A stretch of 21,531 bases of DNA from a virus. Its lineage: Duplodnaviria; Heunggongvirae; Uroviricota; Caudoviricetes. The notes beneath the pieces are model-generated. The model ran no database searches, was not told the origin of the DNA, and saw nothing but the letters and a program-made list of their open reading frames with translations. A program made the position numbers and the translations under genes. This document shows positions 7,256 through 19,752 of this stretch, piece after piece. Within the stretch, counting starts at the first letter, position 1; each line of letters starts with the position of its first letter. The stretch lies in the IMG/VR virus record IMGVR_UViG_2698536335_000017; one strand, 5' to 3'.

Positions 7256-7963
7256 TTATGCCGCCTGTTTTAGTTCGTTAACTCTGATGTTCATTACCTG
7301 AACGCATTTAGCCTGCGCCTCCTCATTGCCAGCCATTAATTGCCAGTCACGCTGATAACGCTCGATGAGTTTTTTCTTGTCAGTTTCTGTTGACGCATAA
7401 TCGCTGAAGTCTTTCAGGATTTGTTCGCAGTCAACCGATGGAGATTTCTGGTTGGTATTTTCTGGTGATGGTTTGTTATCTGATGCTGGTATTGCCCATC
7501 CCGGCAGCGATGGAGGGAGCCAGTAAAATCCTGTTCCATCCTTGAGTTTTGCCCTGTGCCATCCCTGCTTTTTATCGAGAGATGTTTGTGCGAAACCTTC
7601 CTCAAGGTTATACAGATACCGACCGATTCCCCACTGAACGGCAGCGCGCTTCATTGCACCGGAACGACCACCTTTGACGGCTTCTACCTGCGTGTTTTCA
7701 GCAGCATCCCATTTGGTTACCCATTCGGAATCAATCTTTATTGATATGCCGCATTCAACGCCGCCGTTGTTGGGAATATCGCGGTATTCATTGCGCCATC
7801 CTGCTTTGCCGCAAACATCGTCCAGGCGTTTCATGATTGCCCGGTTCGTTACATAAGCCAGCACCATAGCCCACACTTTGCCATCGCGTGTTTTACCGCT
7901 TTGCTGTATTCGCCATTCGATATCTTCAGGGCTGAATGGCTCATCGAATTTATTCAAATCCAT
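7256..7963 (-). CDS. Single-strand annealing protein, Rad52/Sak-like (235 aa)
   Basis: Central AMKRAAVQWGIGRYLY matches the Rad52/Sak signature G-I-G-R-Y-L-Y. It sits where lambda has bet, upstream of ssb and exonuclease, with SD GAGGTG. Confidence 0.65.
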   Translation of the reverse strand: MDLNKFDEPFSPEDIEWRIQQSGKTRDGKVWAMVLAYVTNRAIMKRLDDVCGKAGWRNEYRDIPNNGGVECGISIKIDSEWVTKWDAAENTQVEAVKGGRSGAMKRAAVQWGIGRYLYNLEEGFAQTSLDKKQGWHRAKLKDGTGFYWLPPSLPGWAIPASDNKPSPENTNQKSPSVDCEQILKDFSDYASTETDKKKLIERYQRDWQLMAGNEEAQAKCVQVMNIRVNELKQAA

Positions 7964-8062
7964 AATTCACCTCAGAATGGACACGGCCCAAGGAAATAAC
8001 GCTGATTTAATACTTCAACTCGGGACAAATTAAGGCATACCCGCATTCCTTCGCGGTCGCCA

Positions 8063-8221
8063 TTATGGCGATACCAGAGAGCTTTCTGCGTGTACATGCG
8101 TCTCTGTAACTTGCTCTCCTTCACTGTGGTTGCAAGTGACATGAATATCTCCTTCGTTACCGATTAATTCTTTCATCTGACGAATGAATTCTTCGTCTGA
8201 CCAGTTATCTGTAAAACTCAT
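8063..8221 (-). CDS. Small hypothetical protein (52 aa) between kil and the annealing protein
   Basis: ATG overlaps the kil stop (ATGA); translation MSFTDNWSDEEFIRQMKELIGNEGDIHVTCNHSEGEQVTETHVHAESSLVSP. Confidence 0.4.
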   Translation of the reverse strand: MSFTDNWSDEEFIRQMKELIGNEGDIHVTCNHSEGEQVTETHVHAESSLVSP

Positions 8222-8370
8222 TTCCTGCGATACCACGGATGGTTGATAGCTGATTTCATCGCTTTATTTGCTTCAAGCCACATTTTTGAATCACCAATAA
8301 ATCTGGCTATTACTGCTTTGTTCTGTGCAGCACGAAGCATCTGGTGATTGATGGCTATTTCATTGCGCAT
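8218..8370 (-). CDS. kil: Kil-like host-killing protein (FtsZ inhibitor family), 50 aa
   Basis: Translation MRNEIAINHQMLRAAQNKAVIARFIGDSKMWLEANKAMKSAINHPWYRRK; the IARFIGDSKMW segment resembles lambda Kil (recalled ATFIGDEKMF). SD GGAGG, directly downstream of the cIII-like gene as in lambda. Confidence 0.6.
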   Translation of the reverse strand: MRNEIAINHQMLRAAQNKAVIARFIGDSKMWLEANKAMKSAINHPWYRRK

Positions 8371-8489
8371 AACGCCTCCAGTTGTTTCTTTGCTGCTCTG
8401 ATTAATTGTTTAACTCGGCGTGATAATTTAGATTCGTGCGGGTAGAAAGCGGACATGACGCCGCTACCCGCGAGCTGAAAGTGCATCAT
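8355..8489 (-). CDS. cIII: CIII-like FtsH inhibitor (44 aa from internal start with SD)
   Basis: Translation MMHFQLAGSGVMSAFYPHESKLSRRVKQLIRAAKKQLEALCAMK; AG-x-G then ES-x-L-x-R amphipathic segment as in lambdoid cIII. SD AAGGAG at 6-nt spacing. The 79-aa six-frame form would run through the upstream terminator. Confidence 0.55.
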   Translation of the reverse strand: MMHFQLAGSGVMSAFYPHESKLSRRVKQLIRAAKKQLEALCAMK

Positions 8490-8555
8490 GGGTAACTCCT
8501 TATATTTGATTGCATAACGAAAACGCCTCGAGTGAAGCGTTATTGGTATGCATAT

Positions 8556-8579
8556 AAAAAAGCCCTCACACTGGAGGGC
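8556..8579 (-). terminator. Intrinsic terminator in the pL operon (tL1-like, presumably N-suppressible)
   Basis: On the minus strand: GCCCTC-CAGTGT-GAGGGC hairpin (6-bp GC-rich stem) followed immediately by TTTTTT. Confidence 0.65.
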
Positions 8580-8672
8580 AAAGAAGATTTCCAATAATCA
8601 GAACAAGTCGGCTCCTGTTTAGTTACGAGCGACATTGCTCACATAGCAGACTCGCAAATCTGCTATAGGTGC

Positions 8673-8834
8673 TTATTCGCATCGCATGACAACATCAAAT
8701 TTTTCGAGATTACTTTGTCGCAACAATCCTTCTTCTACGCGGTCAGCTTTTCTATAATTATCAAATTCGAAATGTTTAATTACTTCTTTCGTTTCTCGCT
8801 CTATAACTTCAACAATGTATTTCTTATTCATCAT
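8673..8834 (-). CDS. Small hypothetical protein (53 aa) in an AT-rich segment
   Basis: ATG overlapping the upstream stop; translation MMNKKYIVEVIERETKEVIKHFEFDNYRKADRVEEGLLRQSNLEKFDVVMRCE. Low GC suggests a moron. Confidence 0.35.
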   Translation of the reverse strand: MMNKKYIVEVIERETKEVIKHFEFDNYRKADRVEEGLLRQSNLEKFDVVMRCE

Positions 8835-9127
8835 TCTTCCCCAAGAGCTTTTCTGATTGCTGCAAGACCTTTATTAACAGCTCCATACCATTCTGGATAT
8901 GTTGTCTTTGTTCTATTTTTGGTTTGCTTAAGTAATAACTGAAGTGCTTCGAGAAGGTCAGGTGCTGCCGCTATTAGATTGGCATCTTCAATGCATTGAA
9001 CTTCCTCACAGATTGCAATATACGAACGCCAGCCTGCGCCATTTTCAAGTGAGTCTGCCTGGATGATTTTAATCTCATCGCCATCCATCATTATTTCCCA
9101 CTTACCTTCAGTACCTTTAAATTCCAT
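8831..9127 (-). CDS. Hypothetical acidic early protein (98 aa)
   Basis: Complete ORF in the pL operon; no family recognised. Confidence 0.5.
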   Translation of the reverse strand: MEFKGTEGKWEIMMDGDEIKIIQADSLENGAGWRSYIAICEEVQCIEDANLIAAAPDLLEALQLLLKQTKNRTKTTYPEWYGAVNKGLAAIRKALGEE

Positions 9128-9164
9128 GTTAGCCTCTGTTGTTTATGCCAAAAATAAAGGCCGA

Positions 9165-9488
9165 CTATTCGGCCTTATCTACATTCCTGAACCAAACGCA
9201 GATCGGACCGTCTTCTGTATCGTGAATCGAACCGACAAACCATCCTTCTCCATCTGGCATGCTTGGCTCCCATCCACTGATGTTTTGATTCCCATCTTCA
9301 AAATACGCGTCAATTACCGTTTGATTGTTGTCGTTTTCCATTTCAACAATTGATGATTCAATGCCATGCTGCTTGCAGAAAGATCTGAACTCATCAGCTG
9401 AAATTACCTCTCTATCCCCAAACAGGTTGGCGTATTCTGGGTGCGTCCAGTAGCCATCCTCGCTTCGCTCTACTACTAATGCTTCCAT
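9165..9488 (-). CDS. Hypothetical strongly acidic early protein (107 aa), first gene after N
   Basis: Complete ORF; roughly 25 Asp/Glu against very few Lys/Arg. Confidence 0.5.
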   Translation of the reverse strand: MEALVVERSEDGYWTHPEYANLFGDREVISADEFRSFCKQHGIESSIVEMENDNNQTVIDAYFEDGNQNISGWEPSMPDGEGWFVGSIHDTEDGPICVWFRNVDKAE

Positions 9489-9496
9489 ATCTCACC

Positions 9497-9796
9497 TCAA
9501 ATAAGTGGTTTGCTGCCTAATTTCATTTTCTGGCGACCAACACAAGTCACACCCATTTCACTGCGTGGCTTGCGGTAGTAAATACGGTTCTGTTTACGCT
9601 CTACTTCTTCTGCCTTCTTGCAGCGAAGGCTTCCGAGTGATGCTGCTTTATCTGCTCTGACGCAACCAGAGAGCTTTAGCGCAATTTTTCGCGCCAGTCG
9701 CTGCTCTTGCATTGCCTGTTCACGTTGAGCCTGTCTGCGTGCTCTGCGGCGATTTCTGGCGTTATCGTCAGCCAGATATGTAATGACTACTGTCAT
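9497..9796 (-). CDS. N: Antitermination protein N (99 aa)
   Basis: N-terminal arginine-rich motif NARNRRRARRQAQREQ; C-terminus RIYYRKPRSEMGVTCVGRQKMKLGSKPLI aligns with recalled lambda N. SD GGAGG 5 nt upstream; nutL upstream. Confidence 0.85.
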   Translation of the reverse strand: MTVVITYLADDNARNRRRARRQAQREQAMQEQRLARKIALKLSGCVRADKAASLGSLRCKKAEEVERKQNRIYYRKPRSEMGVTCVGRQKMKLGSKPLI

Positions 9797-9937
9797 GTTG
9801 ACCTCCGATGATTGACTTTGGCGATTGGATGGCCGGTGCTGAACTCCGGCTTATTTACAGGCACCTTGTTCTCCCGAAGCTCTCCTGCGCGCATCAGCCT
9901 GCGCATTCATCCAATCCCAAAGCCAACTACTCTTTGG

Positions 9938-9980
9938 TTCCCGCATTTCGGCGGGACAATCCCATCAATGTTAAAGAGCC
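9938..9980 (-). promoter_or_regulatory. nutL: nutL: boxA (GGCTCTTTAACA) plus boxB hairpin (TCCCGC-CGAAAT-GCGGGA)
   Basis: Minus-strand boxA at 9980..9969 followed 11 nt later by a boxB hairpin 19/20 identical to the one at nutR. Confidence 0.8.
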
Positions 9981-10022
9981 TGCCAATCTGTTCCGTTTGG
10001 CTTCCAGCGTCCTGCTGATGGC

Positions 10023-10112
10023 TAAAGAATACTGTAGGTATTTTATTGGGTAAATACCCAAGGTATTTATTTTTGGTGAAATAATGATAAGCAAATGAAT
10101 ACAAAGGATATT
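10023..10112. promoter_or_regulatory. OL operator cluster / pL promoter region
   Basis: Sites 10028..10042 (AATACTGTAGGTATT) and 10053..10067 (AATACCCAAGGTATT) match the AATAC-N5-GTATT consensus also present at OR; a weaker third site is at 10098..10112 (AATACAAAGGATATT). A minus-strand TATTCT -10-like hexamer overlaps the first site. Confidence 0.6.
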
Positions 10113-10198
10113 TATTTTTTCGTTGTCTGCTTGTTCAGTGCTTTTTATGCGGGATATGTGAAGTTGACCCCGATAGCTATTGCTGCCGGGATTATAGG

Positions 10199-10432
10199 TT
10201 AGTCAGCGAAGGTTAAGACGAGAATTACCTTAATGATGTCTGCTACAACAGACACGGCCATAGATAAACAAAAGACGATCCAAGCCATAGAGATGTCTTC
10301 ACTACCATCGTATAGAGTTCCGTAATCACTGGTGTAAGGCGTAAATGTCGCGCCTTGATACAATAGGTATAAGCTTGATCCATAGAGGATAAATGCAGAT
10401 ATCCCTTGTATTGCTATGATCACTAGAATCAT
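10199..10432 (-). CDS. Small two-helix membrane protein (77 aa) downstream of cI, rex-position gene
   Basis: Two hydrophobic segments (MILVIIAIQGISAFILYGSSLYLLY ... WIVFCLSMAVSVVADIIKVILVL). Same strand as cI, so likely read from pRM in lysogens. Confidence 0.5.
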   Translation of the reverse strand: MILVIIAIQGISAFILYGSSLYLLYQGATFTPYTSDYGTLYDGSEDISMAWIVFCLSMAVSVVADIIKVILVLTFAD

Positions 10433-10453
10433 GAAACGAGCTGATCTATGCGC

Positions 10454-10567
10454 CTAAGCCTGGCTTATTTTTTCTGATAGAGATTTCGCAATAAAAGCAT
10501 GCGCTAAGCCGTAAATTGTCGAGATTGCCAACATCCCCAAAAAGCTTGCTATAGCGGTTCCAACCAT
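10454..10567 (-). CDS. Small hydrophobic peptide (37 aa) immediately downstream of cI
   Basis: Hand-translated: MVGTAIASFLGMLAISTIYGLAHAFIAKSLSEKISQA. ATG 17 nt after the cI stop with AAGGTG 7 nt upstream. Confidence 0.4.
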   Translation of the reverse strand: MVGTAIASFLGMLAISTIYGLAHAFIAKSLSEKISQA

Positions 10568-10584
10568 AATCGCACCTTGCGTGA

Positions 10585-11301
10585 TCAAACCAGCCTTAGT
10601 TTTGTCTCAATTGCAACGCCTATAATCTTGCAGTTTCCATTGATTGGCACGAGAGGCCATGCAGGATTAAGTCCCTTGAGGTATTTATTTCCGCCGTCGA
10701 TTATCAGCTTCTTGAATGTTGCTTCGTTAGAGTCAGAAAGTTTTGCTATGACCAAGCTGCCGTTGATCGCCTCCCTTCCGGTATCGAAAAGAACGAATGT
10801 TCCCTCTGGAATGCTTAACCCAACCGGTGCCGTCATTGAATCACCTTCCACTTTAAGCCAGAACGCATTACCTTGAATATGCGCGTCAGACTCAAGCCAA
10901 ACATCTATGTCTTTAATGGTGTATGGTTCGCATGCTTCACACCACGAGCCAGCCTGGATACTGCTTAACACCGGATACCTCTTTCCTGCTCTGTATTCCC
11001 CTGCATACCTTACGTTGGCATCGCTCTTAAGGCTTTCTGCCTGTTCTGCAACCTTGGCAGCAATTGACTGGCTAAAATCAGCAATTGAGACTTGCAACAA
11101 TCGTGCAAAACCAGATGCAACCTCAACGTTTAGCGCGTTTCTGCCATTAAGATAATGCCCTACCGCTCCTTGGGTGATACCCAGTTCATCAGCGATTGAG
11201 TATTGGGTTATTCCCAATTCTTTCTTTTTTGACTCATACAAAGCCTTAAGCCGCTTAGCGTCTTCGAGCTGTTCTGTCGTCAGTGATTTTTTATTTTCCA
11301 T
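10585..11301 (-). CDS. cI: CI repressor (HTH N-terminal domain plus LexA-like S24 self-cleaving C-terminal domain), 238 aa
   Basis: N-terminus resembles lambda CI (LTTEQLEDAKRLKALYESKKKELGITQ) with a different recognition helix; the C-terminal domain (SWCEACEPYTIKDIDVWLESD ... FWLKVEGDSMTAPVGLSIPEG ... ATFKKLIIDGGNKYLKGLNPAWP) resembles 434 CI as recalled. Divergent from cro across the operators. Confidence 0.9.
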   Translation of the reverse strand: MENKKSLTTEQLEDAKRLKALYESKKKELGITQYSIADELGITQGAVGHYLNGRNALNVEVASGFARLLQVSIADFSQSIAAKVAEQAESLKSDANVRYAGEYRAGKRYPVLSSIQAGSWCEACEPYTIKDIDVWLESDAHIQGNAFWLKVEGDSMTAPVGLSIPEGTFVLFDTGREAINGSLVIAKLSDSNEATFKKLIIDGGNKYLKGLNPAWPLVPINGNCKIIGVAIETKLRLV

Positions 11302-11306
11302 AGCTT

Positions 11307-11379
11307 AATTCTAATAGCTAAGGTACTTAAACTAAAAATACCCTGAGTATTGATTGCTTTGAATACCTGTAGTATTCTT
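11307..11379. promoter_or_regulatory. OR operator cluster with divergent pRM and pR promoters
   Basis: Three sites about 24 bp apart: 11313..11327 (AATAGCTAAGGTACT, weak), 11337..11351 (AATACCCTGAGTATT), 11361..11377 (GAATACCTGTAGTATTC). pR candidate: -35 TTGATT (11351..11356), 17-bp spacer, -10 TATTCT (11374..11379). pRM candidate -10 TAGAAT on the minus strand (11307..11312) with leaderless cI. Confidence 0.65.
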
Positions 11380-11407
11380 TGTTCATGGTTAATAACGGAG
11401 AGTGCAT

Positions 11408-11602
11408 ATGATTCGAATGACACTTGCCGATTACGCCAAAATCCATGGACAGGCTAAAGCAGCCAGTGACTTTGGTGTAATCCAGTGCGCTATCAGCAAG
11501 GCCATTCTGGCAGGCCGTAACATCATGGTTACGGTAAAGCCTGATGGCAGTGTGATTGGAGAGGAAGTTCGTCCTTTCCCAAGCAACAAGAAAAACAAAT
11601 AG
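11408..11602 (+). CDS. cro: Cro repressor (about 64 aa)
   Basis: Translation [64 protein letters not shown] aligns with recalled lambda Cro. SD GGAG 7 nt upstream; the start could instead be the GTG at 11402. Confidence 0.85.
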
Positions 11603-11608
11603 TAACAC

Positions 11609-11653
11609 CGCTCTTTAACAGTCATGGTCCTCATTCCCGCCGAAATGCGGGAA
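11609..11653 (+). promoter_or_regulatory. nutR: nutR: boxA (CGCTCTTTAACA) plus boxB hairpin (TTCCCGC-CGAAAT-GCGGGAA)
   Basis: Consensus boxA at 11609..11620 followed 13 nt later by a 7-bp stem hairpin at 11634..11653, nearly identical to the nutL boxB. Confidence 0.8.
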
Positions 11654-11659
11654 TACAAC

Positions 11660-11694
11660 GCGCATAAGTTGATGCGCATAACTTCTTATTTGTT
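11660..11694 (+). terminator. Candidate tR1 terminator
   Basis: GCGCAT-AAGTTG-ATGCGC hairpin followed by a T-rich stretch, between nutR and cII as for lambda tR1. Confidence 0.4.
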
Positions 11695-11710
11695 AAGGAA
11701 ATACTTACAT

Positions 11711-11989
11711 ATGGAACTTACAAGTACTCGCAAGAAAGCGAATGCAATTACAAGCAACATCCTGAATCGAACTGCTGTACGTGGTCAGCGAAAGGTTGCC
11801 GACGCGTTAGGGATTAATGAATCGCAAATTTCGCGATGGAAAGACAGCTTCATCCCAAAAATGGGAATGCTTCTGGCTGTTCTTGAATGGGGTGTTGAAG
11901 ACGAGGAGTTGGCGGAACTGGCTAAGAAAGTAGCCAGAATGCTGACAAAAGAAAAAGCCCCGAAGAACGGCGAATTCTTCGAGGCCTGA
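11711..11989 (+). CDS. cII: CII transcriptional activator (92 aa from ATG at 11711)
   Basis: Translation ... GINESQISRWKDSFIPKMGMLLAVLEWGVEDEELAELAKKVARMLT aligns with recalled lambda CII. The six-frame ORF start at 11624 would overlap nutR. Confidence 0.85.
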   Translation: MELTSTRKKANAITSNILNRTAVRGQRKVADALGINESQISRWKDSFIPKMGMLLAVLEWGVEDEELAELAKKVARMLTKEKAPKNGEFFEA

Positions 11990-12023
11990 TGTAGAAAGAC
12001 TGGATCAATCCACAGGAGTAATT

Positions 12024-12668
12024 ATGACATACGAAAATGACAAATTCCAGGTTCTGAAGAGCATGAAGGTGCCAGATGATTTTAAATCAAATGGCTTTGT
12101 TTATGTGCTTTCGAATGAGTGCATGCCAGGAATTTATAAGATTGGGATGACTAAGCATTCACCAGAAGTCAGGGCTAAAGAAATTTCAGCCTCTACTGGC
12201 GTTCCTAAGCCATTTAAGGTGATAGCAGCCTTTCATTCAAATAATCCCGCATCAGATGAAAAACTCATTCATAAAGCCTTTGCAAAAGAGAGGCTTAGTG
12301 ATAATCGAGAGTTTTTCAAGCTTGAAGATAATGATCTTTCTGAATCTCTAAATGAAATAAGGGCGCTGGTTGGCCCTGAAAGAAATGGCGAGACGGCAGA
12401 ATACGCAATTTACGACTCATTCATTTCTTTTCGCCATGAAAATGAGCTTGATCTTAATGAGGAGCTTATAGAGCAAGGTCTGGGTAGTGTAGTTGGTCAT
12501 CTTCCTGCGGTGAAAAATTTCCTTATTCGCGCCGGAATTGATTACGCGAAGCAACTGATAAGCAAATATAACTCATCGATAGTTATTAATACAGATGGCA
12601 GTGTGGTGATGGTTAAGTTTCTTGAAGCCCAATGCTTTGATGCGGAGGTTGGAAATGAGCCTGGCTGA
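12024..12668 (+). CDS. T5orf172 / MUG113-type GIY-YIG-like domain protein (214 aa) inserted between cII and O
   Basis: N-terminal GFVYVLSNECMPGIYKIGMT ... EVRAKEIS ... PFKVIAAFHS ... EKLIHKAFAKERLSDNREFFK fits the T5orf172 pattern. Strong SD AGGAG 5 nt upstream; C-terminal about 90 aa unassigned. Confidence 0.55.
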   Translation: MTYENDKFQVLKSMKVPDDFKSNGFVYVLSNECMPGIYKIGMTKHSPEVRAKEISASTGVPKPFKVIAAFHSNNPASDEKLIHKAFAKERLSDNREFFKLEDNDLSESLNEIRALVGPERNGETAEYAIYDSFISFRHENELDLNEELIEQGLGSVVGHLPAVKNFLIRAGIDYAKQLISKYNSSIVINTDGSVVMVKFLEAQCFDAEVGNEPG

Positions 12669-13497
12669 AGTATTTTACCTGCCGAAGAGTGAACCTGTTG
12701 AACAGGAGCGAAGAGTGGCTGATATCGATGATGGTTACACCAGATTCGCTAACGAGCTGCTGGAAGCTATCGCAAGTGCCGATTTAACCGCTCGCCAGTT
12801 GAAAGTTATGCTGGCCTACGTCCGGAAAACATATGGATTCAATAAGAAAACAGATCGAATAGCCGATGAGCAAATTGCTCAGTTAACAGGACTGTCAAGG
12901 CAGAATGTTAACAAGGCTAAAAAAGAACTGATTTCAATGAATTGCCTGTTTATGGATGGAAATCAAATCGGTGTAAACAGTGAGGTATCTGCGTGGCAAT
13001 TCAGCAAGTGTCTCCAAGTTAGCAACTTTGTCTCGAAGTTAGAGACAAAAAATGTCTCCAAATTAGAGACACTCAATGTCTCGAAGTTAGAGACACACAA
13101 AAGACATTCTTTAAAGACAAAAGAAAATATTAATAAACCCCCTATATCCCCCAAAAAGGTTTCTCAGAAGTTCGACCCGCTAGAAACAGAGTTGCCTGAT
13201 TGGTTATCAGCAGAAACATGGTTGTCGTGGGTTACCTATCGCAAGGAGATAGGTAAGTCGATCAAGTCTAAGCAAAGTGTAACTCAGGCTATCAACGTTC
13301 TAAGCAGAAGTCTGGAGAAGGGATATACACCTGAAGAAATTATAAACCAGAGCATCGCCAGTGGTTGGCAGGGGATTTTTGAGCCCAAGACTCCAAAGGG
13401 GAAATCTCAACCGAGGCCGCAGCATCGAGCTATGCAGGAAAACTTTGCCACCAAAGATTACGGACAAACTGAAATGCCTTCATGGGCGCAGGAGTGA
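12655..13497 (+). CDS. O: Replication initiator O-like protein (from ATG at 12655)
   Basis: N-terminal domain ERRVADIDDGYTRFANELLEAIASADLTARQLKVMLAYVRKTYGFNKKTDRIADEQIAQLTGL aligns with recalled lambda O; iterons lie inside the gene. SD GGAGG upstream of 12655; the six-frame start at 12622 is less likely. Confidence 0.85.
   Translation: MSLAEVFYLPKSEPVEQERRVADIDDGYTRFANELLEAIASADLTARQLKVMLAYVRKTYGFNKKTDRIADEQIAQLTGLSRQNVNKAKKELISMNCLFMDGNQIGVNSEVSAWQFSKCLQVSNFVSKLETKNVSKLETLNVSKLETHKRHSLKTKENINKPPISPKKVSQKFDPLETELPDWLSAETWLSWVTYRKEIGKSIKSKQSVTQAINVLSRSLEKGYTPEEIINQSIASGWQGIFEPKTPKGKSQPRPQHRAMQENFATKDYGQTEMPSWAQE
13009..13095. repeat. ori iterons: three 19-bp palindromic repeats (TGTCTC-N7-GAGACA) at 24-bp spacing plus one degenerate copy, followed by an AT-rich segment
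   Basis: Repeats at 13029..13047, 13053..13071, 13077..13095 (first and third identical); degenerate copy at 13009..13026. They encode the repeated VSKLET peptide in O; AT-rich DNA at about 13096..13160. Confidence 0.8.
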
Positions 13498-13499
13498 AC

Positions 13500-14345
13500 A
13501 TGACGCTGGATGAAAAGATCTCCCAACTTGAGAAAAAACTTGCAGAATTGAGTTCTCCGCCAATTGCTATCGAGCATACAGCTGTAGAAATTGGCACTGG
13601 CATCTGTGAAAAACATGGTGAGTTTGAGCAGCGTAACCGTTACTCGACTGGGCCAATTAAGTTTGCCTCAAGACCTAGCGAATGCCCGGAATGCATGAGA
13701 GATGAGCTTATTCGGCTACAGGCAGAGAAGATTAAAATCGACGAGGAATCACGTAAGCGCAATGTCGAGTTTCTGTTGAATAATCTTGATATTCCTGAAC
13801 GATTCAAGGGTTGCACACTACAGAACTACGAACCAGTCAACGACGATGCAAAGAGAGTGCTCAGGGTGTGTCAGGCATACGCCAGCAAATGGCCTGAGAG
13901 GTTACAGAAAGGCGGTGGGCTGGTTATGTGTGGAAAGCCTGGTACTGGAAAGAATCATCTTGCACTGGCTATCGCCCGGCACGCAATTACGGAACATCAA
14001 AGCTCAGCTATTTTCACAACGGCGCTGAAAATTGCCAGAGAATATAAATCAACATGGTCGAAAAACTCCACCCGCACAGAGGATGAAGTGATCCGACAGT
14101 TCACTAAACCTGACTTGCTAATTATCGATGAGGTTGGTGTGCAGTTTGGAAGCGAGGCGGAAAAGATGATCATGTTCGAAATCATCAACACCCGCTACGA
14201 GCGCATGAAGCCAACAATCCTGATTAGCAACCAGAGCAAAGATGAACTGTCTGCATTCATTGGTGAGCGTGTTATTGACAGGATGAATGATGGCGGCGGG
14301 TGCACTCTTGCGTTTACATGGGATAGTTACAGGAGCAGATCGTGA
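13500..14345 (+). CDS. DnaC-like helicase loader (AAA+ ATPase)
   Basis: Walker A GKPGTGKNHLALAIA (as in E. coli DnaC) and Walker B LLIIDEVG. SD GGAG 5 nt upstream of ATG 13500; alternative start 13482. Confidence 0.85.
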   Translation: MTLDEKISQLEKKLAELSSPPIAIEHTAVEIGTGICEKHGEFEQRNRYSTGPIKFASRPSECPECMRDELIRLQAEKIKIDEESRKRNVEFLLNNLDIPERFKGCTLQNYEPVNDDAKRVLRVCQAYASKWPERLQKGGGLVMCGKPGTGKNHLALAIARHAITEHQSSAIFTTALKIAREYKSTWSKNSTRTEDEVIRQFTKPDLLIIDEVGVQFGSEAEKMIMFEIINTRYERMKPTILISNQSKDELSAFIGERVIDRMNDGGGCTLAFTWDSYRSRS

Positions 14346-14632
14346 CTGGAAAAGAAATCATCCTGGAATATCTGAAAACTCATGAACAATTCTCCCCACA
14401 TGAATTAGCACTGATCACCGGAATACCAAATAACAGAATCGCTCAAGCAGCAAGGCATATGGTGAAACAAGGACATTTGAGTGTTGTTGAGCGTAAGTGG
14501 AAGACGGTTATTTATGCAAAACGCAAAGTGAAGAAGGAGCCAATTAAAAGAAATCCAGATGGTACGGGGTGGGGATGTGCAAATCCAATGACGGCGTTTA
14601 TTAATAGGGCGCTTATGGAGGTAAGGCAATGA
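14342..14632 (+). CDS. Small putative DNA-binding phage protein (96 aa), GTG start
   Basis: SD AGGAG 6 nt upstream of GTG overlapping the upstream stop; helix-turn-helix-like segment LALITGIPNNRIAQAARHM. Confidence 0.5.
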   Translation: MTGKEIILEYLKTHEQFSPHELALITGIPNNRIAQAARHMVKQGHLSVVERKWKTVIYAKRKVKKEPIKRNPDGTGWGCANPMTAFINRALMEVRQ

Positions 14633-14656
14633 CCATCTACATCACTGAGCTAATAA

Positions 14657-14688
14657 CAGGCCTGCTGGTAATCGCAGGCCTTTTTATT
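14657..14688 (+). terminator. Intrinsic terminator in the pR operon (tR2-like)
   Basis: Perfect 8-bp stem AGGCCTGC / GCAGGCCT with 8-nt loop, followed by TTTTATTT. Confidence 0.65.
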
Positions 14689-14704
14689 TGGGGGAGGGTA
14701 AATC

Positions 14705-14911
14705 GTGGCTGAGTTAATTTTCTCTGCATTGAGGATTCTCGGTGCTATGTGGATGGTGGCGACGTTCATTGTTGTTGCCAGCAGTTTTGTCCGGTTGGTA
14801 GGCGAAGGTAAAGACCTGGTGGGTGTGCTTTTCGGTAGCATTTTCCTGTGGGTGATTATCGGTGTTATGCCTGTCGCTGTAGCAAAAATGGCGTGGAGTT
14901 TTGTGAGTTGA
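14705..14911 (+). CDS. Small membrane protein (68 aa), GTG start
   Basis: SD GGGGGAGGG upstream; two hydrophobic helices (ILGAMWMVATFIVVASSFV ... LFGSIFLWVIIGVMPVAVA). Confidence 0.5.
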   Translation: MAELIFSALRILGAMWMVATFIVVASSFVRLVGEGKDLVGVLFGSIFLWVIIGVMPVAVAKMAWSFVS

Positions 14912-14928
14912 ACTGAGGGTAAGTATCG

Positions 14929-15291
14929 ATGGACGAATCAAGAAAGCAGTTTGAAGAAAGTTGGTTGCGACGTGGAGGCGAATCCTCAGACCTTATCCGT
15001 TACCCTGAAAATCACCATGAAATTGGCAGTGGTGATATTGGTGGTCAATACGTGATGGACGATGTTCAAGGCCACTGGCAAACGTGGCAGGCATCGCGAG
15101 CAGCTATTGAACTGGATATTGACTGGCCCGAATCGAATGACGACTTTTGGAAAGATGGTGAAGAAGGTGCTTATGCGATGGGTTATGAGGATGGGAGAGA
15201 CAAAACGGTAATTGCAGTAATGAAAGCTATCAGAGCCGCTGGAATTAAAGAGAAGAATTTCGATGAAGCAAACAATCTTCCTCCGAACTAA
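14929..15291 (+). CDS. Hypothetical nin-region protein (120 aa)
   Basis: Complete ORF; overlaps the ninB start by 29 nt. Confidence 0.45.
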   Translation: MDESRKQFEESWLRRGGESSDLIRYPENHHEIGSGDIGGQYVMDDVQGHWQTWQASRAAIELDIDWPESNDDFWKDGEEGAYAMGYEDGRDKTVIAVMKAIRAAGIKEKNFDEANNLPPN

Positions 15292-15673
15292 GCAACAACA
15301 GCAAGCTGCAATAAATGCCATCCTCGCAACACCACTCGATAAAGACAAGCCAGTCACCATCCGCATTACTGACTACAAGCGCAACCTTGACCAGAACGCA
15401 AAATTTCACGCGATGCTGGCGGATATCGCTCGTCAGGTTCAATGGTGCGGCAAATGGTTAAAACCAGAACAATGGAAGGTTTTGTTGATCAGCGGTCATG
15501 CAGTGGCAACAAAACAGGAAGCTGATGTTTTTCCCGGGCTTGAAGGCGAATACGTCAACATTCGCGAAAGCAGCGCGCAGATGAGTGTGAAGCGTATGGC
15601 AAGTCTTATCGAGTACACAACAGCCTGGGCTATTGGTCATGGTGTCAGATTTACCGACAGGAGGTACGAATGA
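15263..15673 (+). CDS. ninB: NinB-like recombination protein (136 aa)
   Basis: Aligns along its length with recalled lambda NinB (LDQN ... QV-W-G-WL ... W). Confidence 0.75.
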
Positions 15674-15846
15674 GACGACAGCGACGAAGTATCACCGACA
15701 TCATCTGCGAAAACTGCAAATACCTTCCAACGAAACGCTCCAGAAATAAACGCAAGCCAATCCCAAAAGAATCTGACGTAAAAACCTTCAACTACACGGC
15801 TCACCTGTGGGATATCCGGTGGCTAAGACATCGTGCGAGGAAATGA
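15670..15846 (+). CDS. ninE: NinE-like protein (58 aa), hand-translated
   Basis: Translation [58 protein letters not shown] matches recalled lambda NinE nearly residue for residue. SD AGGAGG upstream. Confidence 0.75.
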
Positions 15847-16208
15847 CAATGGATTATTCACAGTTAAGTGATTTTGAAATTAACGTGGCGGTATTCGAAG
15901 CCATTCATAACGGATCGCCGGATTACAAAGAAGGTGAGAATGGCGATATGGTGTTTGTCTCATTTGAGGGAGACATTGTAAACGGAGACGCAGTTGAAGT
16001 AGAAGTTGAGCGCGGATCCTTTAACCCATGCGCAAACCCAGCAGACTCATGGCCGATTATTGAAAAATACAGGATTAGCATTATCAATCTCGATGAAGAC
16101 GAGTGGGGTGCACGCGGTGTGGCCTACTGTAAATCTAAGCGAGCTATACATGAAAATCCCCTTCGCGCCGCCATGATTGTCTTTCTCATGATGCAGAGAA
16201 TCCAATAA
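15843..16208 (+). CDS. Hypothetical nin-region protein (about 121 aa from ATG overlapping the ninE stop)
   Basis: ATGA overlap with ninE; acidic protein. The six-frame ORF starts earlier at 15807. Confidence 0.5.
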
Positions 16209-16384
16209 TGCTTAGCCCATCCCAATCCCTTCAATACCAGAAAGAAAGCGTCGAGCGAGCTTTAACGTGCGCTAACTGCGGTCAGAAGCTGCATGTGCTG
16301 GAAGTTCACGTGTGTGAGCACTGCTGTGCAGAACTGATGAGCGATCCGAATAGCTCAATGTACGAGGAAGAAGACGATGAGTGA
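16208..16384 (+). CDS. ninF: NinF-like Cys-rich small protein (58 aa), hand-translated
   Basis: Translation [58 protein letters not shown] matches recalled lambda NinF; TAATG overlap with the upstream gene. Confidence 0.7.
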   Translation: MLSPSQSLQYQKESVERALTCANCGQKLHVLEVHVCEHCCAELMSDPNSSMYEEEDDE

Positions 16385-16589
16385 TTACCTGAAATGGTAT
16401 CTCTGCCACCGCTGGCTAATTAAGTTTGCTGTAAAAGACTGGATGACAGCGGATGCCAACAAACTTAAGCAAAGAAAGGACTATTACTACGCCAGAATGA
16501 AGGAAAACTACTGCTCAATTCGCACTCGCATATTTATTAAAAAAGACCTTCAGTCAATTCTTCAATTGCGAGGGAAGGTAAATGGCTAA
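16377..16589 (+). CDS. Small hypothetical nin-region protein (70 aa)
   Basis: ORF overlapping ninF stop and the downstream start. Confidence 0.4.
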   Translation: MSDYLKWYLCHRWLIKFAVKDWMTADANKLKQRKDYYYARMKENYCSIRTRIFIKKDLQSILQLRGKVNG

Positions 16590-16872
16590 CCTACGCAAAG
16601 AAGCGCGCGGCAGAGAATGCCAGGTACGTATTTACGGCGTATGCAATGGCAATCCTGAAACTACAGTTCTGGCACATTACCGGATGGCTGGAATTTGTGG
16701 AACGGGGATGATGCCTGACGACCTGATCGGCGCATGGGCTTGTAGTGACTGCCACGCGGAGATCGACCGACGCACAAGGATTCTCGACAACAAAGACGCC
16801 AGACTTTACCACCTCGAAGGCGTGATCAGGACGCAGGCGATACTGCTGAAGGAGGGGAAGATTAAGTCATGA
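16582..16872 (+). CDS. YbcO-like (DUF1364) Cys-rich nin-region protein (96 aa)
   Basis: ARGRECQVRIYGVCNGNPETTVLAH ... CSDCHAEIDRRT pattern resembles DLP12 YbcO as recalled; sits directly upstream of rusA as in DLP12. Confidence 0.65.
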   Translation: MANLRKEARGRECQVRIYGVCNGNPETTVLAHYRMAGICGTGMMPDDLIGAWACSDCHAEIDRRTRILDNKDARLYHLEGVIRTQAILLKEGKIKS

Positions 16873-17231
16873 ACGAATATCAGTTTGTGCTTCCATACCC
16901 GCCGTCGGTGAATACCTACTGGCGAAGACGGGGAAGCCAATACTACATCAGCGATAAAGGCCAGAAATACCGAAAAGACGTTCAGCAAATCATCCACCAA
17001 CTCAAGTTAGATATTTTCACCAAATCACGACTCCGCATCAAAGTAATCGCAGACGTTCCAGACTCCCGCCGCCGCGACCTAGATAACATCCTGAAGGGTT
17101 TACTCGACTCCCTTATCCATGCCGGATTTGCGGAAGACGACGAGCAATTCGATGACATTCGCGTAATTCGTGGTGTGAAAGTACCAGGCGGACGGCTTGG
17201 AATAAAAATCACCGAACTGGAGAACGCATGA
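16869..17231 (+). CDS. rusA: RusA-family Holliday junction resolvase (120 aa)
   Basis: LPYPPSVNTYWRRRG ... PDSRRRDLDNILKGLLDSLIHAGF ... DDEQFDDIRVIRGVKVPGGRLGIKITE aligns with E. coli RusA including the catalytic Asp-rich core. Confidence 0.85.
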   Translation: MNEYQFVLPYPPSVNTYWRRRGSQYYISDKGQKYRKDVQQIIHQLKLDIFTKSRLRIKVIADVPDSRRRDLDNILKGLLDSLIHAGFAEDDEQFDDIRVIRGVKVPGGRLGIKITELENA

Positions 17232-17416
17232 ACGCCACAATTCAAACGATACCAGAGCTTCTTATCCAGACACGAGGCAATCAGACCGAAGTGGCGAGGA
17301 TGCTTTCCTGCGCAAGAGGAACAGTGCTCAAGTACAACCGAGACAGCAAAGGCGAGCGTCATGTAATAGTTAACGGCGTCCTGATGGTCAAACAGGGCAA
17401 GAGGGGAAGACGATGA
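17228..17416 (+). CDS. Small nin-region protein (62 aa), last gene before the moron
   Basis: ATGA overlap with rusA; no family recognised. Confidence 0.45.
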   Translation: MNATIQTIPELLIQTRGNQTEVARMLSCARGTVLKYNRDSKGERHVIVNGVLMVKQGKRGRR

Positions 17417-17544
17417 GACTCGAAAGCGTAGCTAAATTTCATTCGCCAAAAAGCCCGATGATGAGCGACTCACTACTGGCCACAGTTTATTGGTTTTCGT
17501 AACTGAGTCATTTTATTATTTTATTGCAACTTTTAATCTTTTAT

Positions 17545-17596
17545 AGTGCGAAATAAATGGAGCTGGCATTCATTTCGCACTTTATGTTTTTGTTGG
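17545..17596 (+). terminator. Terminator-like hairpin with long loop plus T-rich tail
   Basis: Perfect 10-bp inverted repeat AGTGCGAAAT ... ATTTCGCACT (17-nt loop) followed by TTATGTTTTTGTTGG. Confidence 0.35.
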
Positions 17597-17627
17597 ACTT
17601 ATGTTATTTTGATTGAATTCAATTCAG

Positions 17628-18587
17628 TTAAAAAAAGAAGGTGATTGCTCCATTTATAAATGAATAGTCATCCCCTGTCTTGAATTCTGATGTTACTTTA
17701 TTAAATGCTAGTGTGAAGGCTACAGGTGCATACCCAATTGTTGCGCCAACTTGATATTCATCAACAGTTTTGTTTAGCGATACTGTTGTTTGTTTCGTCT
17801 GTATTGTTTTTCCTTCGAGAGTATAGTTGCGATTGACATCTCGTCTTTCCATACCTGCAAAAATCTTGTATTTGAATCCGCTTGTATCGGACATATGCAT
17901 TAAACCACGGGGAGCCAGCAGACCAAAGCCATTATCCGAATTGAAGGTTTTATCATTACCAATGGCAATGGTTGCGCCATATGCTACATATTGAAATAAG
18001 TTTCCAGTAACAGCAGAAACTTCAGGGTATAATCCAACATTAGCACCTAAAATATCCATACTTGGTGTCATGGATAGCATCCCTTTTACAGTATAACCGT
18101 AGCGATTCTCTATTTGATCATCCCATGCATGATATTTTTCTGCCCCAATAATCTCATGAGCTTTATTTTGTACTTTCTGACCGCCTGCGTCGGGGCCAAC
18201 AACACCTATGTCAGTACCTAATCGATAGCGAATCCAGTCATTCGCAAGGGAGTTCCATTCAATACCAGTGTGAGTGTATGCACTAAAAGCTCTGTCTCCA
18301 GTTACAGCTGTGTTGTGTCTTTTATTACTGCCTGATGGAGAGTAAATATCTTGCGCAATATGGAGAGATAATTGGCTCGAGTCTGAGATATCGTGGCTAT
18401 ATCCCAGAAATAAGCCTTGTGAGTAATCATCTCTGTTTTCATGTTTATTGCCATAAATATCATTAAGTATTGGTTGAAACTTCCCTGCATCATCATTTGC
18501 TAATGATAATGCAAGGCTGTTCGCGATAGCTGAACACGTGGTAAATGACAGAGCAATAAAGACGCCAGCGATGACACTTTTTTTCAT
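17628..18587 (-). CDS. lpxR: Outer-membrane beta-barrel protein, probably LpxR-family lipid A 3'-O-deacylase (319 aa), prophage moron
   Basis: Signal peptide, C-terminal aromatic residues, alternating beta-strand pattern. Length equals Salmonella LpxR as recalled, and the predicted mature N-terminus NSLALSLAND puts Asn9-Asp10 where LpxR has catalytic N9/D10. Opposite strand, AT-rich flanks. Confidence 0.5.
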   Translation of the reverse strand: MKKSVIAGVFIALSFTTCSAIANSLALSLANDDAGKFQPILNDIYGNKHENRDDYSQGLFLGYSHDISDSSQLSLHIAQDIYSPSGSNKRHNTAVTGDRAFSAYTHTGIEWNSLANDWIRYRLGTDIGVVGPDAGGQKVQNKAHEIIGAEKYHAWDDQIENRYGYTVKGMLSMTPSMDILGANVGLYPEVSAVTGNLFQYVAYGATIAIGNDKTFNSDNGFGLLAPRGLMHMSDTSGFKYKIFAGMERRDVNRNYTLEGKTIQTKQTTVSLNKTVDEYQVGATIGYAPVAFTLAFNKVTSEFKTGDDYSFINGAITFFF

Positions 18588-18978
18588 ATGTTATTGTCTT
18601 CCTTTTTTTTGAATGGTGCGCGTATTTTACATACATGAGTTTGTAATACAAGGTGCGTAATCAATATGATGTTTTATAATTGCGTGAGACAATTGATTTA
18701 TTCGTTTTTTATTGTGGTTTTTATTATCTTTTAATGTAACGGTGTTTTTATTAAGTGTGTTTGCGTGGTGTTTTATGTTTTTTATAATTTTTATTTTATT
18801 AAATTTAAAAGTATTAGTAATGGCTATTCTATATAGCAATATAAGAACTGTTACAAAAAAAGGGGGGGCAATTACAGGTAGTTATGGATGATGAGTGAAA
18901 CAGATATTGGAGAACCGGGGAATGAATGATGTCTGAGTCTTATATATCAGAACTCCTTCGCTGTCGCTGGGGGCTCCT

Positions 18979-19752
18979 GTGCTTATGTCGTTTCCCCGAT
19001 TCGGTTTTGAACGATTACCGAATGTTGAAGAATTATGCCAAAATATAGAAAGGATTTACTGCATGAATACCCAATATTTACAGTATGTTCGTGAGCAACT
19101 TATGGCAGCTACTGCTGACTTGAACGGAGCAACGAAAGGCCAGCTCGAAGCCTGGCAGGAGCATGCACAATTTGATACTGGTACATACAAACGAAAGAAG
19201 CCGCGCATTCTGGATGTGGTAACTGGCAAGATGATTACGCTGGATAATACGCCGACTTCCGGTAAGCAGTCGTACGCAAAAGGTTCATCCATTGCTTTGG
19301 TCAGCCCGGTTGAATTCTCAACCTCTTCATGGCGCCGCGCGGTTTTGTCTCTCGATGAACATCAGAAAGCATGGTTGCTTTGGTGTTACAGCGAAAGCGT
19401 TCGATGGGGGCATCAGGTCACCATAACGCAATGGGCATGGAGCGAGTTTAAAGATTTGTTAAGTAACAGAAAAATTGCAGGTAAGACACTGGATCGCCTG
19501 AAGACGTTAATCTGGCTGGCTGCACAGGATGTGAAGAGCGAACTTGCAGGGCGTGAGGCCTATGAATACCAGACACTGGCATCATTGGTGGGAGTGACAA
19601 CAAAAAACTGGTCCGAGACATTTACTGAACGCTGGGTTGCAATGAAGCACATTTTTCTACAGCTTGATAGTGATGCTTTATTGCTTGTGACGAGAACACG
19701 TTCAAAACAAAAGGCAGCATTTTTACAGCAAAATATTGCAAAACTGGATTAA
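18979..19752 (+). CDS. Q: Late-gene antiterminator Q, large phage-82-like type (257 aa)
   Basis: Last gene of the early-right operon, immediately followed by a consensus-like promoter and a short terminated transcript (pR'/tR' arrangement). Start ambiguous (GTG 18979, ATG 18985 or ATG 19063). Family call is mainly by position and length. Confidence 0.6.
   Translation: MLMSFPRFGFERLPNVEELCQNIERIYCMNTQYLQYVREQLMAATADLNGATKGQLEAWQEHAQFDTGTYKRKKPRILDVVTGKMITLDNTPTSGKQSYAKGSSIALVSPVEFSTSSWRRAVLSLDEHQKAWLLWCYSESVRWGHQVTITQWAWSEFKDLLSNRKIAGKTLDRLKTLIWLAAQDVKSELAGREAYEYQTLASLVGVTTKNWSETFTERWVAMKHIFLQLDSDALLLVTRTRSKQKAAFLQQNIAKLD

Follow-up and report, generated by a model that had tools for sequence, protein, structure and literature searches.

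An interrupted allele of hkaS, encoding a predicted inner-membrane protein, in the rex position of a prophage with HK620-type immunity

Genes and operators of the immunity region

The window analysed here, that is, the whole stretch of 21,531 nucleotides of the IMG/VR virus record IMGVR_UViG_2698536335_000017 (Caudoviricetes), carries an immunity region of the HK620 type. Its minus strand encodes cI, two short ORFs (10454..10567, or 10454..10588 from the upstream start, and 10199..10432) and N, and its plus strand encodes cro and cII (Table 1). The cI protein is 100% identical to the cI of many E. coli genomes, and 17 nt separate its stop codon from the start codon of the frame downstream; N forms the left border of the cI-to-N interval. 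The putative pL overlaps the OL operators and is directed leftward, away from the two ORFs, and matching copies of the palindrome AATACnnnnnGTATT at 11337-11351 and 11362-11376 are the OR operators, as annotated in HK620. Over the immunity region the window is approximately 99% identical to HK620, HK630, HK140, mEpX2, HF4s, 611R6 and several Stx-converting phages.

In phage lambda, rexA-rexB occupy the same map position as the two ORFs, on the cI strand between cI and OL. A first-pass annotation made from the window alone had placed ORFs of 37 and 77 codons in this rex position, and both are present exactly where it located them, on the cI strand between cI and the OL operators, with N further to the left. 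The only coding sequence between cI (which ends at 10585) and the operators (from 10112) is a frame of 369 nt that spans both of them.

Table 1. Features of the immunity region (positions are those of the window).
Feature	Coordinates	Strand	Description
N antiterminator	9497..9796	-	First pL gene; weak N_peptide match; homologue annotated as N in HK620 and 611R6
Putative pL hexamers	-35 TTTACC 10054..10049; -10 TATTCT 10031..10026	-	Read from the sequence, not scored by the promoter scan; HK620 pL
Left operators	OL1 10028-10043; OL2 10053-10067; third copy 10098-10112	-	Repeat family AATACnnnnnGTATT; OL1-3 of HK620
Hairpin directly after hkaS stop	10167..10192	-	No U tract; RNA fold, z = -0.95, not significant
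hkaS, full frame	10199..10567	-	123 codons (122 aa and stop), interrupted at codon 38; length and frame of HK620 hkaS; PHROG 6534
C-terminal remnant	10199..10432	-	77 aa from internal Met46; TM helices 2 and 3, periplasmic loop (predicted)
N-terminal fragment	10454..10567	-	37 aa from ATG, 44 aa from upstream TTG; TM helix 1 and start of cytoplasmic loop (predicted)
Amber codon TAG	10454..10456	-	Replaces invariant TGG (Trp38); changed base 10455, T on the plus strand, C in relatives
hkaS Shine-Dalgarno AAGGTG	10573..10578	-	5 nt before ATG 10567, 6 nt after cI stop
cI repressor	10585..11301	-	HK620 immunity type, 238 aa; HTH_3 and Peptidase_S24

Two minor features of the region deserve mention. 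The start codon of cI (11301) shows no Shine-Dalgarno pairing (dG -0.6 kcal/mol) and OR lies at 11313..11376, an arrangement consistent with a leaderless, lambda-like pRM transcript. A hydrophobic ORF of 35 aa on the plus strand (10095..10202) is convergent with the 369-nt frame, overlaps its stop codon and begins within the third OL copy. The annotation of phage HF4s includes it as a CDS; it has only a weak Shine-Dalgarno sequence and no counterpart at the divergent loci L003 (Salmonella) and L103, and is probably spurious.

The reading frame between cI and OL

The two ORFs lie in the same frame, seven codons apart, and the TAG at 10454-10456 is the sole interruption of the 369 nt; translation of 10199..10588 yields the HkaS protein of phage HK620 with a single internal stop (...KISQA*AHRSARFMILV...). 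HK620 annotates the equivalent interval as one 369-bp gene, hkaS (122 aa; GenBank AF335538, AAK28867), and a single CDS over the interval is likewise annotated in phage 611R6 and in RefSeq E. coli genomes (WP_000233125). The window and HK620 copies are 97-98% identical at the DNA level in the same 369-nt frame, and the alignment at codon 38 reads TGG in HK620 and 611R6 and TAG in the window. Searches against the 122-position profile of PHROG 6534 led to the same arrangement: the first ORF covers positions 1-37 (E 2.6e-18) and the second positions 46-122 (E 2.9e-46) of a profile that the intact HkaS of HK620 covers from 1 to 122 (E 1.1e-78). Apart from lacking an uninterrupted ORF of 122 codons, the window copy is thus a member of this family. 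The codons between the two ORFs (AHRSARF), together with W38, fall within the best-conserved stretch of the family alignment. Relative to the common allele, the window copy carries two further changes, F10L and G100C, and its Shine-Dalgarno sequence reads AAGGTG where 92 of 93 relatives have AAGGGG. At the start of the second ORF (ATG 10432) no Shine-Dalgarno pairing was detected (dG +0.4 kcal/mol, against -3.9 for ATG 10567 and -10.2 for N).

Because the two ORFs share a frame, because the relatives carry that frame as one gene and because there is no second Shine-Dalgarno sequence, we read the window as carrying a disrupted allele of one gene and no peptide pair. We are accordingly rather confident, from comparison of the sequences, that 10199..10567 is the single gene hkaS, inactivated or severely crippled by a private TGG-to-TAG change at codon 38. 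The first-pass annotation had recognised neither peptide; the gene is in fact already catalogued (the HK620 record, PHROG 6534, WP_000233125), without a characterised function.

A search with a degenerate pattern (TRG at codon 38) retrieved 96 IMG/VR loci, which with HK620 and 611R6 gave 98 copies; codon 38 is TGG in all 98, and every one of the 93 copies aligned at window position 10455 has the wild-type base (G in the sense of the gene, C on the plus strand). Even in homologues at 52-60% identity W38 is invariant. The TAG allele had no match in IMG/VR; scans of species-representative genomes and of 241 million metagenome records likewise gave no exact match, and the exact 37-, 44- and 77-aa peptides of the window are absent from a collection of approximately 15 billion proteins.

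One further contig is a near twin of the window. IMGVR_UViG_2671180643_000017 (L101) matches window positions 7900..19752 at the same coordinates with two mismatches in 11,853 nt, at the amber codon (10455, where L101 has C and therefore TGG) and at 10049. Because this near-identical contig has TGG, the window would have arisen very recently from a prophage with an intact hkaS, or would be a sequencing variant of one. The L101 contig (19,752 nt) begins at the start coordinate of the window, and the window extends 1,779 nt beyond it. Both differences lie within 406 nt, in the left arm of the immunity region; position 10049 falls within the putative -35 hexamer of pL, which reads TTTACC in the window and TTTACA in L101, and 21 of the 93 related copies have the same base here as the window.

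Distribution and conservation of the HkaS family

A word-indexed search recovered 12 clusters of homologues, essentially all of 122 aa, from E. coli, Hafnia (82% identity), Salmonella (60%) and metagenomic types (56% and 52%); W38 and the motif AHRxARF persist even at 52% identity. Among 1.84 billion cluster representatives, an exhaustive HMM search gave only two matches, so there are no remote relatives from which a function might be borrowed, and a profile-based scan of species-representative genomes returned no relative of hkaS. All the HkaS copies recovered in these searches belong to lambdoid and P22-like prophages of enterobacteria.

The family is closely tied to one type of repressor. 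In every divergent homologue examined, hkaS lies 17-20 nt downstream of a LexA-like cI of the HK620 type and upstream of OL and N; this order is seen in the window, in HK620, in the Salmonella loci L003-L006, in L103 and in L105/L106, and it covers E. coli, Hafnia-type and metagenomic copies. The linked cI proteins (238-240 aa) are 86-89% identical to the cI of the window, against 52-60% for HkaS; when the E. coli type is compared with the Salmonella type, identity is 60% for HkaS and 86% for cI. Among complete E. coli genomes the two genes occur in identical numbers, each in 146 of 5426 genomes and at 147 places, which puts hkaS in approximately 2.7% of them, O111:H8 strains included. Podoviral genomes (HK620, HF4s) and siphoviral ones (HK630, HK140, mEpX2) alike carry the gene along with the immunity cassette. 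This one-to-one linkage could simply reflect physical position within the immunity cassette, between cI and OL.

When the E. coli, Salmonella and L103 types are compared, dS is saturated while dN is 0.34-0.43, codons 38-45 included, which indicates purifying selection acting on one continuous hkaS frame. The family alignment has 42 invariant positions, and 94 of the full-length copies in IMG/VR are intact. At the population level, across 92 E. coli-type IMG/VR copies compared with window 10199..11301, hkaS has a pN/pS of 0.53 and a nucleotide diversity of 0.0126, against 0.04 and 0.0062 for cI; the pN/pS value of 0.53 fits a gene engaged in an arms race and a weakly constrained accessory gene equally well.

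The N-terminal third of hkaS is frameshifted in several database copies, namely those of phage HF4s (locus L104, 937..1326) and of the protein records P0005, P0007 and P0009. The frameshifts lie near runs of T6 and A6 and leave helices 2 and 3 in frame; these copies reflect either recurrent inactivation or homopolymer sequencing errors.

Other readings of the interval have to be weighed against that of a single, disrupted gene. The first-pass annotation spoke of two small membrane proteins and considered it plausible, but unproven, that they form either an exclusion module of minimal size acting at the membrane or a toxin and its small partner. Independent membrane peptides of 37 and 77 aa would form such a two-component module; both ORFs exist, both are hydrophobic as was claimed, and the databases have a 77-aa version as a protein entry of its own for phage HF4s and for some E. 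coli strains. However, all that separates the two is the TAG and seven conserved codons of a shared frame, the relatives (98/98) read through the site with Trp, the second ORF lacks a Shine-Dalgarno sequence of its own, the HF4s entry stems from the N-terminal frameshift of that record and not from a two-gene design, and the exact peptides are found nowhere else. The membrane character therefore holds and the pair of genes does not: the proposed partners would be the two halves of one 122-codon gene, and we give an independent pair practically no credence. The main value of the comparison is corrective in this respect, as the window on its own suggests two novel micro-proteins with a possible toxin-and-partner story, and the relatives turn these into one catalogued gene with a premature stop. 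We find it scarcely more credible that hkaS is a non-functional chance ORF in the cI-OL spacer, whose stop codon would be meaningless. Such a reading would agree with the lack of a recognised function or domain, with the recurrence of disrupted copies (the window, HF4s, P0005, P0007 and P0009) and with the moderately high pN/pS, but a 122-codon frame of identical length has been kept across lineages with saturated dS and a dN of 0.34-0.43, and the 42 invariant positions, the 94 intact copies, a proper Shine-Dalgarno sequence and a confident AlphaFold2 model (see below) all speak against it. A greater, though still small, probability attaches to the amber codon being a sequencing or assembly error or a mutation acquired in the laboratory, with hkaS intact in the source prophage: L101, which matches the window at the same coordinates with only one further mismatch, has TGG, and the TAG allele is found nowhere else. 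Against this, the change is a base substitution and not a homopolymer indel, and the other difference from L101, at 10049, is a common natural polymorphism, suggesting that the two contigs come from genuinely distinct isolates.

Predicted protein, expression and possible role

The intact protein was modelled with AlphaFold2 from an alignment of six sequences (pLDDT 87), which gave helices at residues 2-29, 31-38, 41-74 and 89-121 and a small hairpin at approximately 78-86. Hydropathy analysis showed three hydrophobic segments, with helices at about 3-26, 46-70 and 94-120. The first loop (27-45) has 3-5 Lys and Arg residues, and the second (71-93) has 0-1 of these and 2-4 acidic residues; by the positive-inside rule, the N-terminus and loop 2 would be periplasmic and loop 1 and the C-terminus cytoplasmic. 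Intact HkaS is thus predicted to be an inner-membrane protein of three helices, with its N-terminus in the periplasm and its C-terminus in the cytoplasm. W38 falls within the basic and highly conserved loop predicted to be cytoplasmic (KISQAWAHRxARF), and the acidic loop predicted to be periplasmic would fold as a small beta-hairpin (YLLYQGATFxPY...). Within the helices lie invariant residues that are polar or charged (Q54, S65, D110 and K113), the latter two in the third helix. The prediction of topology proposed in the first-pass annotation consequently assigns helix 1 to the 37-aa ORF and helices 2 and 3 to the 77-aa ORF.

Searches for a characterised relative were negative throughout. With the fragments and with full-length members, Pfam gave only sub-threshold hydrophobic matches (Cation_ATPase_C, TssN, DHHC); NCBIfam gave nothing above cut-off, the lnt model at E 0.011 being far below it; and no PADLOC-DB v2 family was matched at E <= 1 by full-length HkaS or by either fragment. 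A PDB sequence search with HkaS had no matches, comparison of the HkaS model with known folds (BFVD among them) returned nothing specific, and alignment with lambda RexB by hhalign had a probability of 0.7%. A literature search with hkaS, its accessions and its PHROG number found nothing relevant. Profile and structure searches, which the first-pass annotation had put forward as a check, hence placed the gene in PHROG 6534 and in no characterised family of either defence or non-defence type (Pfam, NCBIfam, PADLOC, PDB, BFVD).

Class I holins such as lambda S105 have three TM helices with an N-out/C-in topology, and their constitutive expression in a lysogen would be lethal. HkaS resembles them in its size class (approximately 100-120 aa), its three TM helices and its predicted topology. 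Unlike a class I holin, it ends (...LVLTFAD) two residues past helix 3 with no charged cytoplasmic tail, and its gene lies in the immunity region, whereas holin genes lie in the lysis cassette. This identity was rejected on the missing tail, the location in the immunity region and the lack of a match to any Pfam holin family.

With regard to expression, the 17-nt gap between cI and hkaS contains a Shine-Dalgarno sequence and no recognisable promoter or terminator. A promoter scan of 9750..11450 found no consensus sites, not even at the annotated positions of pL and pR, so that an internal promoter could equally have escaped it. A terminator scan found none on the minus strand between hkaS and OL; the annotators of HK620 placed tIMM at the position equivalent to approximately 10087-10117. 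Since only pRM and pRE point into hkaS, with no recognisable promoter or terminator between it and cI, hkaS would, to judge from the map, be translated from the leftward cI mRNA, made from pRM in the lysogen and from pRE at establishment, as is the case for lambda rexAB and BTP1 bstA. In the window copy, efficient synthesis would be expected only of the 37-aa fragment with helix 1; lacking a ribosome-binding site, the 77-aa remainder would arise only through weak re-initiation or amber suppression. The prophage in the window is most likely a natural hkaS null or hypomorph.

The interval between cI and N has been recognised as a hotspot of mosaicism in which prophages carry defence genes (PMC8585504). 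HkaS resembles RexB in map position and strand, presumably in being encoded on the pRM/pRE transcript, and in its predicted nature as a polytopic inner-membrane protein (PMC8585504). Unlike lambda RexAB, however, hkaS has no RexA-like partner gene, since the coding sequence between cI and OL amounts to 369 nt only, and HkaS (122 aa, three predicted helices) has no sequence relationship to RexB (144 aa). In the Salmonella prophage BTP1, likewise, the gene that follows cI directly is bstA, in tight linkage with the repressor locus; its expression in lysogens is high, and BstA has been described as gathering at the sites where phage DNA replicates (PMC8585504). HkaS is like BstA in the position of its gene immediately downstream of cI, and unlike it in being a small predicted integral membrane protein with no homology in PADLOC. 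A third comparison is with SieA of P22, a small, membrane-embedded superinfection-exclusion protein expressed in the lysogen; HK620 appears in the SieA paper for its ejection proteins only (PMC10883804). SieA, Imm of T4 and gp15 of HK97 are small, phage- or prophage-encoded and membrane-embedded, and act without an enzymatic domain; HkaS shares with them its size class, predicted membrane location and stand-alone gene, but no sequence similarity or specific similarity of fold was detected. The sieA gene is located elsewhere in the P22 genome, whereas hkaS is in the immunity cassette. By position and predicted membrane location HkaS is RexB- or Sie-like; by sequence, partner content and fold it belongs to neither family.

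An exclusion or abortive-infection role, as the first-pass annotation proposed for this position, is a reasonable hypothesis. More specifically, HkaS may act as a single component, an inner-membrane protein expressed from the prophage, in shielding the lysogen from other phages; our grounds for this are two, map position and predicted membrane location, and we put its chances somewhat below even. In that case HkaS might block genome entry at the inner membrane in the manner of P22 SieA, T4 Imm or HK97 gp15, or might alternatively collapse the membrane upon infection, as in RexB-like abortive infection. The faster evolution of hkaS relative to cI is compatible with a defence role, though not uniquely so. 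More tentative still is the suggestion that HkaS is the founding member of a family of single-gene, three-helix membrane anti-phage proteins, hard-wired to one lambdoid immunity type and co-expressed with cI. We consider it on the whole unlikely, while giving it real weight, that HkaS is a lysogen-expressed membrane protein with a role other than anti-phage defence, whether in lysogenic conversion, in modulating the host (by regulating a transporter, sensor kinase or protease at the inner membrane) or in adjusting the prophage's own lysis-lysogeny decision. HkaS has no similarity to any defence family, and a small polytopic protein with a conserved basic cytoplasmic loop and polar residues within its helices is what might be expected of a protein that binds a partner in the membrane. 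Other lysogen-expressed prophage genes, such as lom and bor of lambda, have non-defence roles, and an LpxR-like conversion gene is found in the same window. Yet the characterised occupants of the cI-to-N interval cited above (rexAB and bstA) are all anti-phage, and the more rapid divergence of hkaS than of cI (60% against 86% identity; pN/pS 0.53 against 0.04) fits antagonistic co-evolution, again not uniquely.

Beyond the correction made above, the locus is of interest for a conserved, uncharacterised membrane protein in the best-known defence slot of lambdoid prophages, that of rexAB and bstA. This makes hkaS a reasonable and cheap candidate for exclusion assays, for which the window provides a natural knockout allele; if the HkaS family did prove to serve defence, the window and L101 would constitute a near-isogenic pair of null and wild type, differing in the amber codon and in the polymorphism of the pL -35 hexamer.

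Outside the cI-to-N interval, the prophage is a mosaic: the flanks of its HK620-type immunity are 99% identical to phage 434. The plus strand encodes a protein of 214 aa with a T5orf172/MUG113 (GIY-YIG-like) domain (12024..12668), inserted between cII and the replication gene O at a site where HK620 has only the small ORF hkaW. The LpxR-like gene, for an outer-membrane lipid A deacylase, is on the opposite strand (17628..18587, minus), just upstream of the antiterminator gene Q (18979..19752), and looks like a lysogenic-conversion moron; phage 434 carries a similarly named gene.
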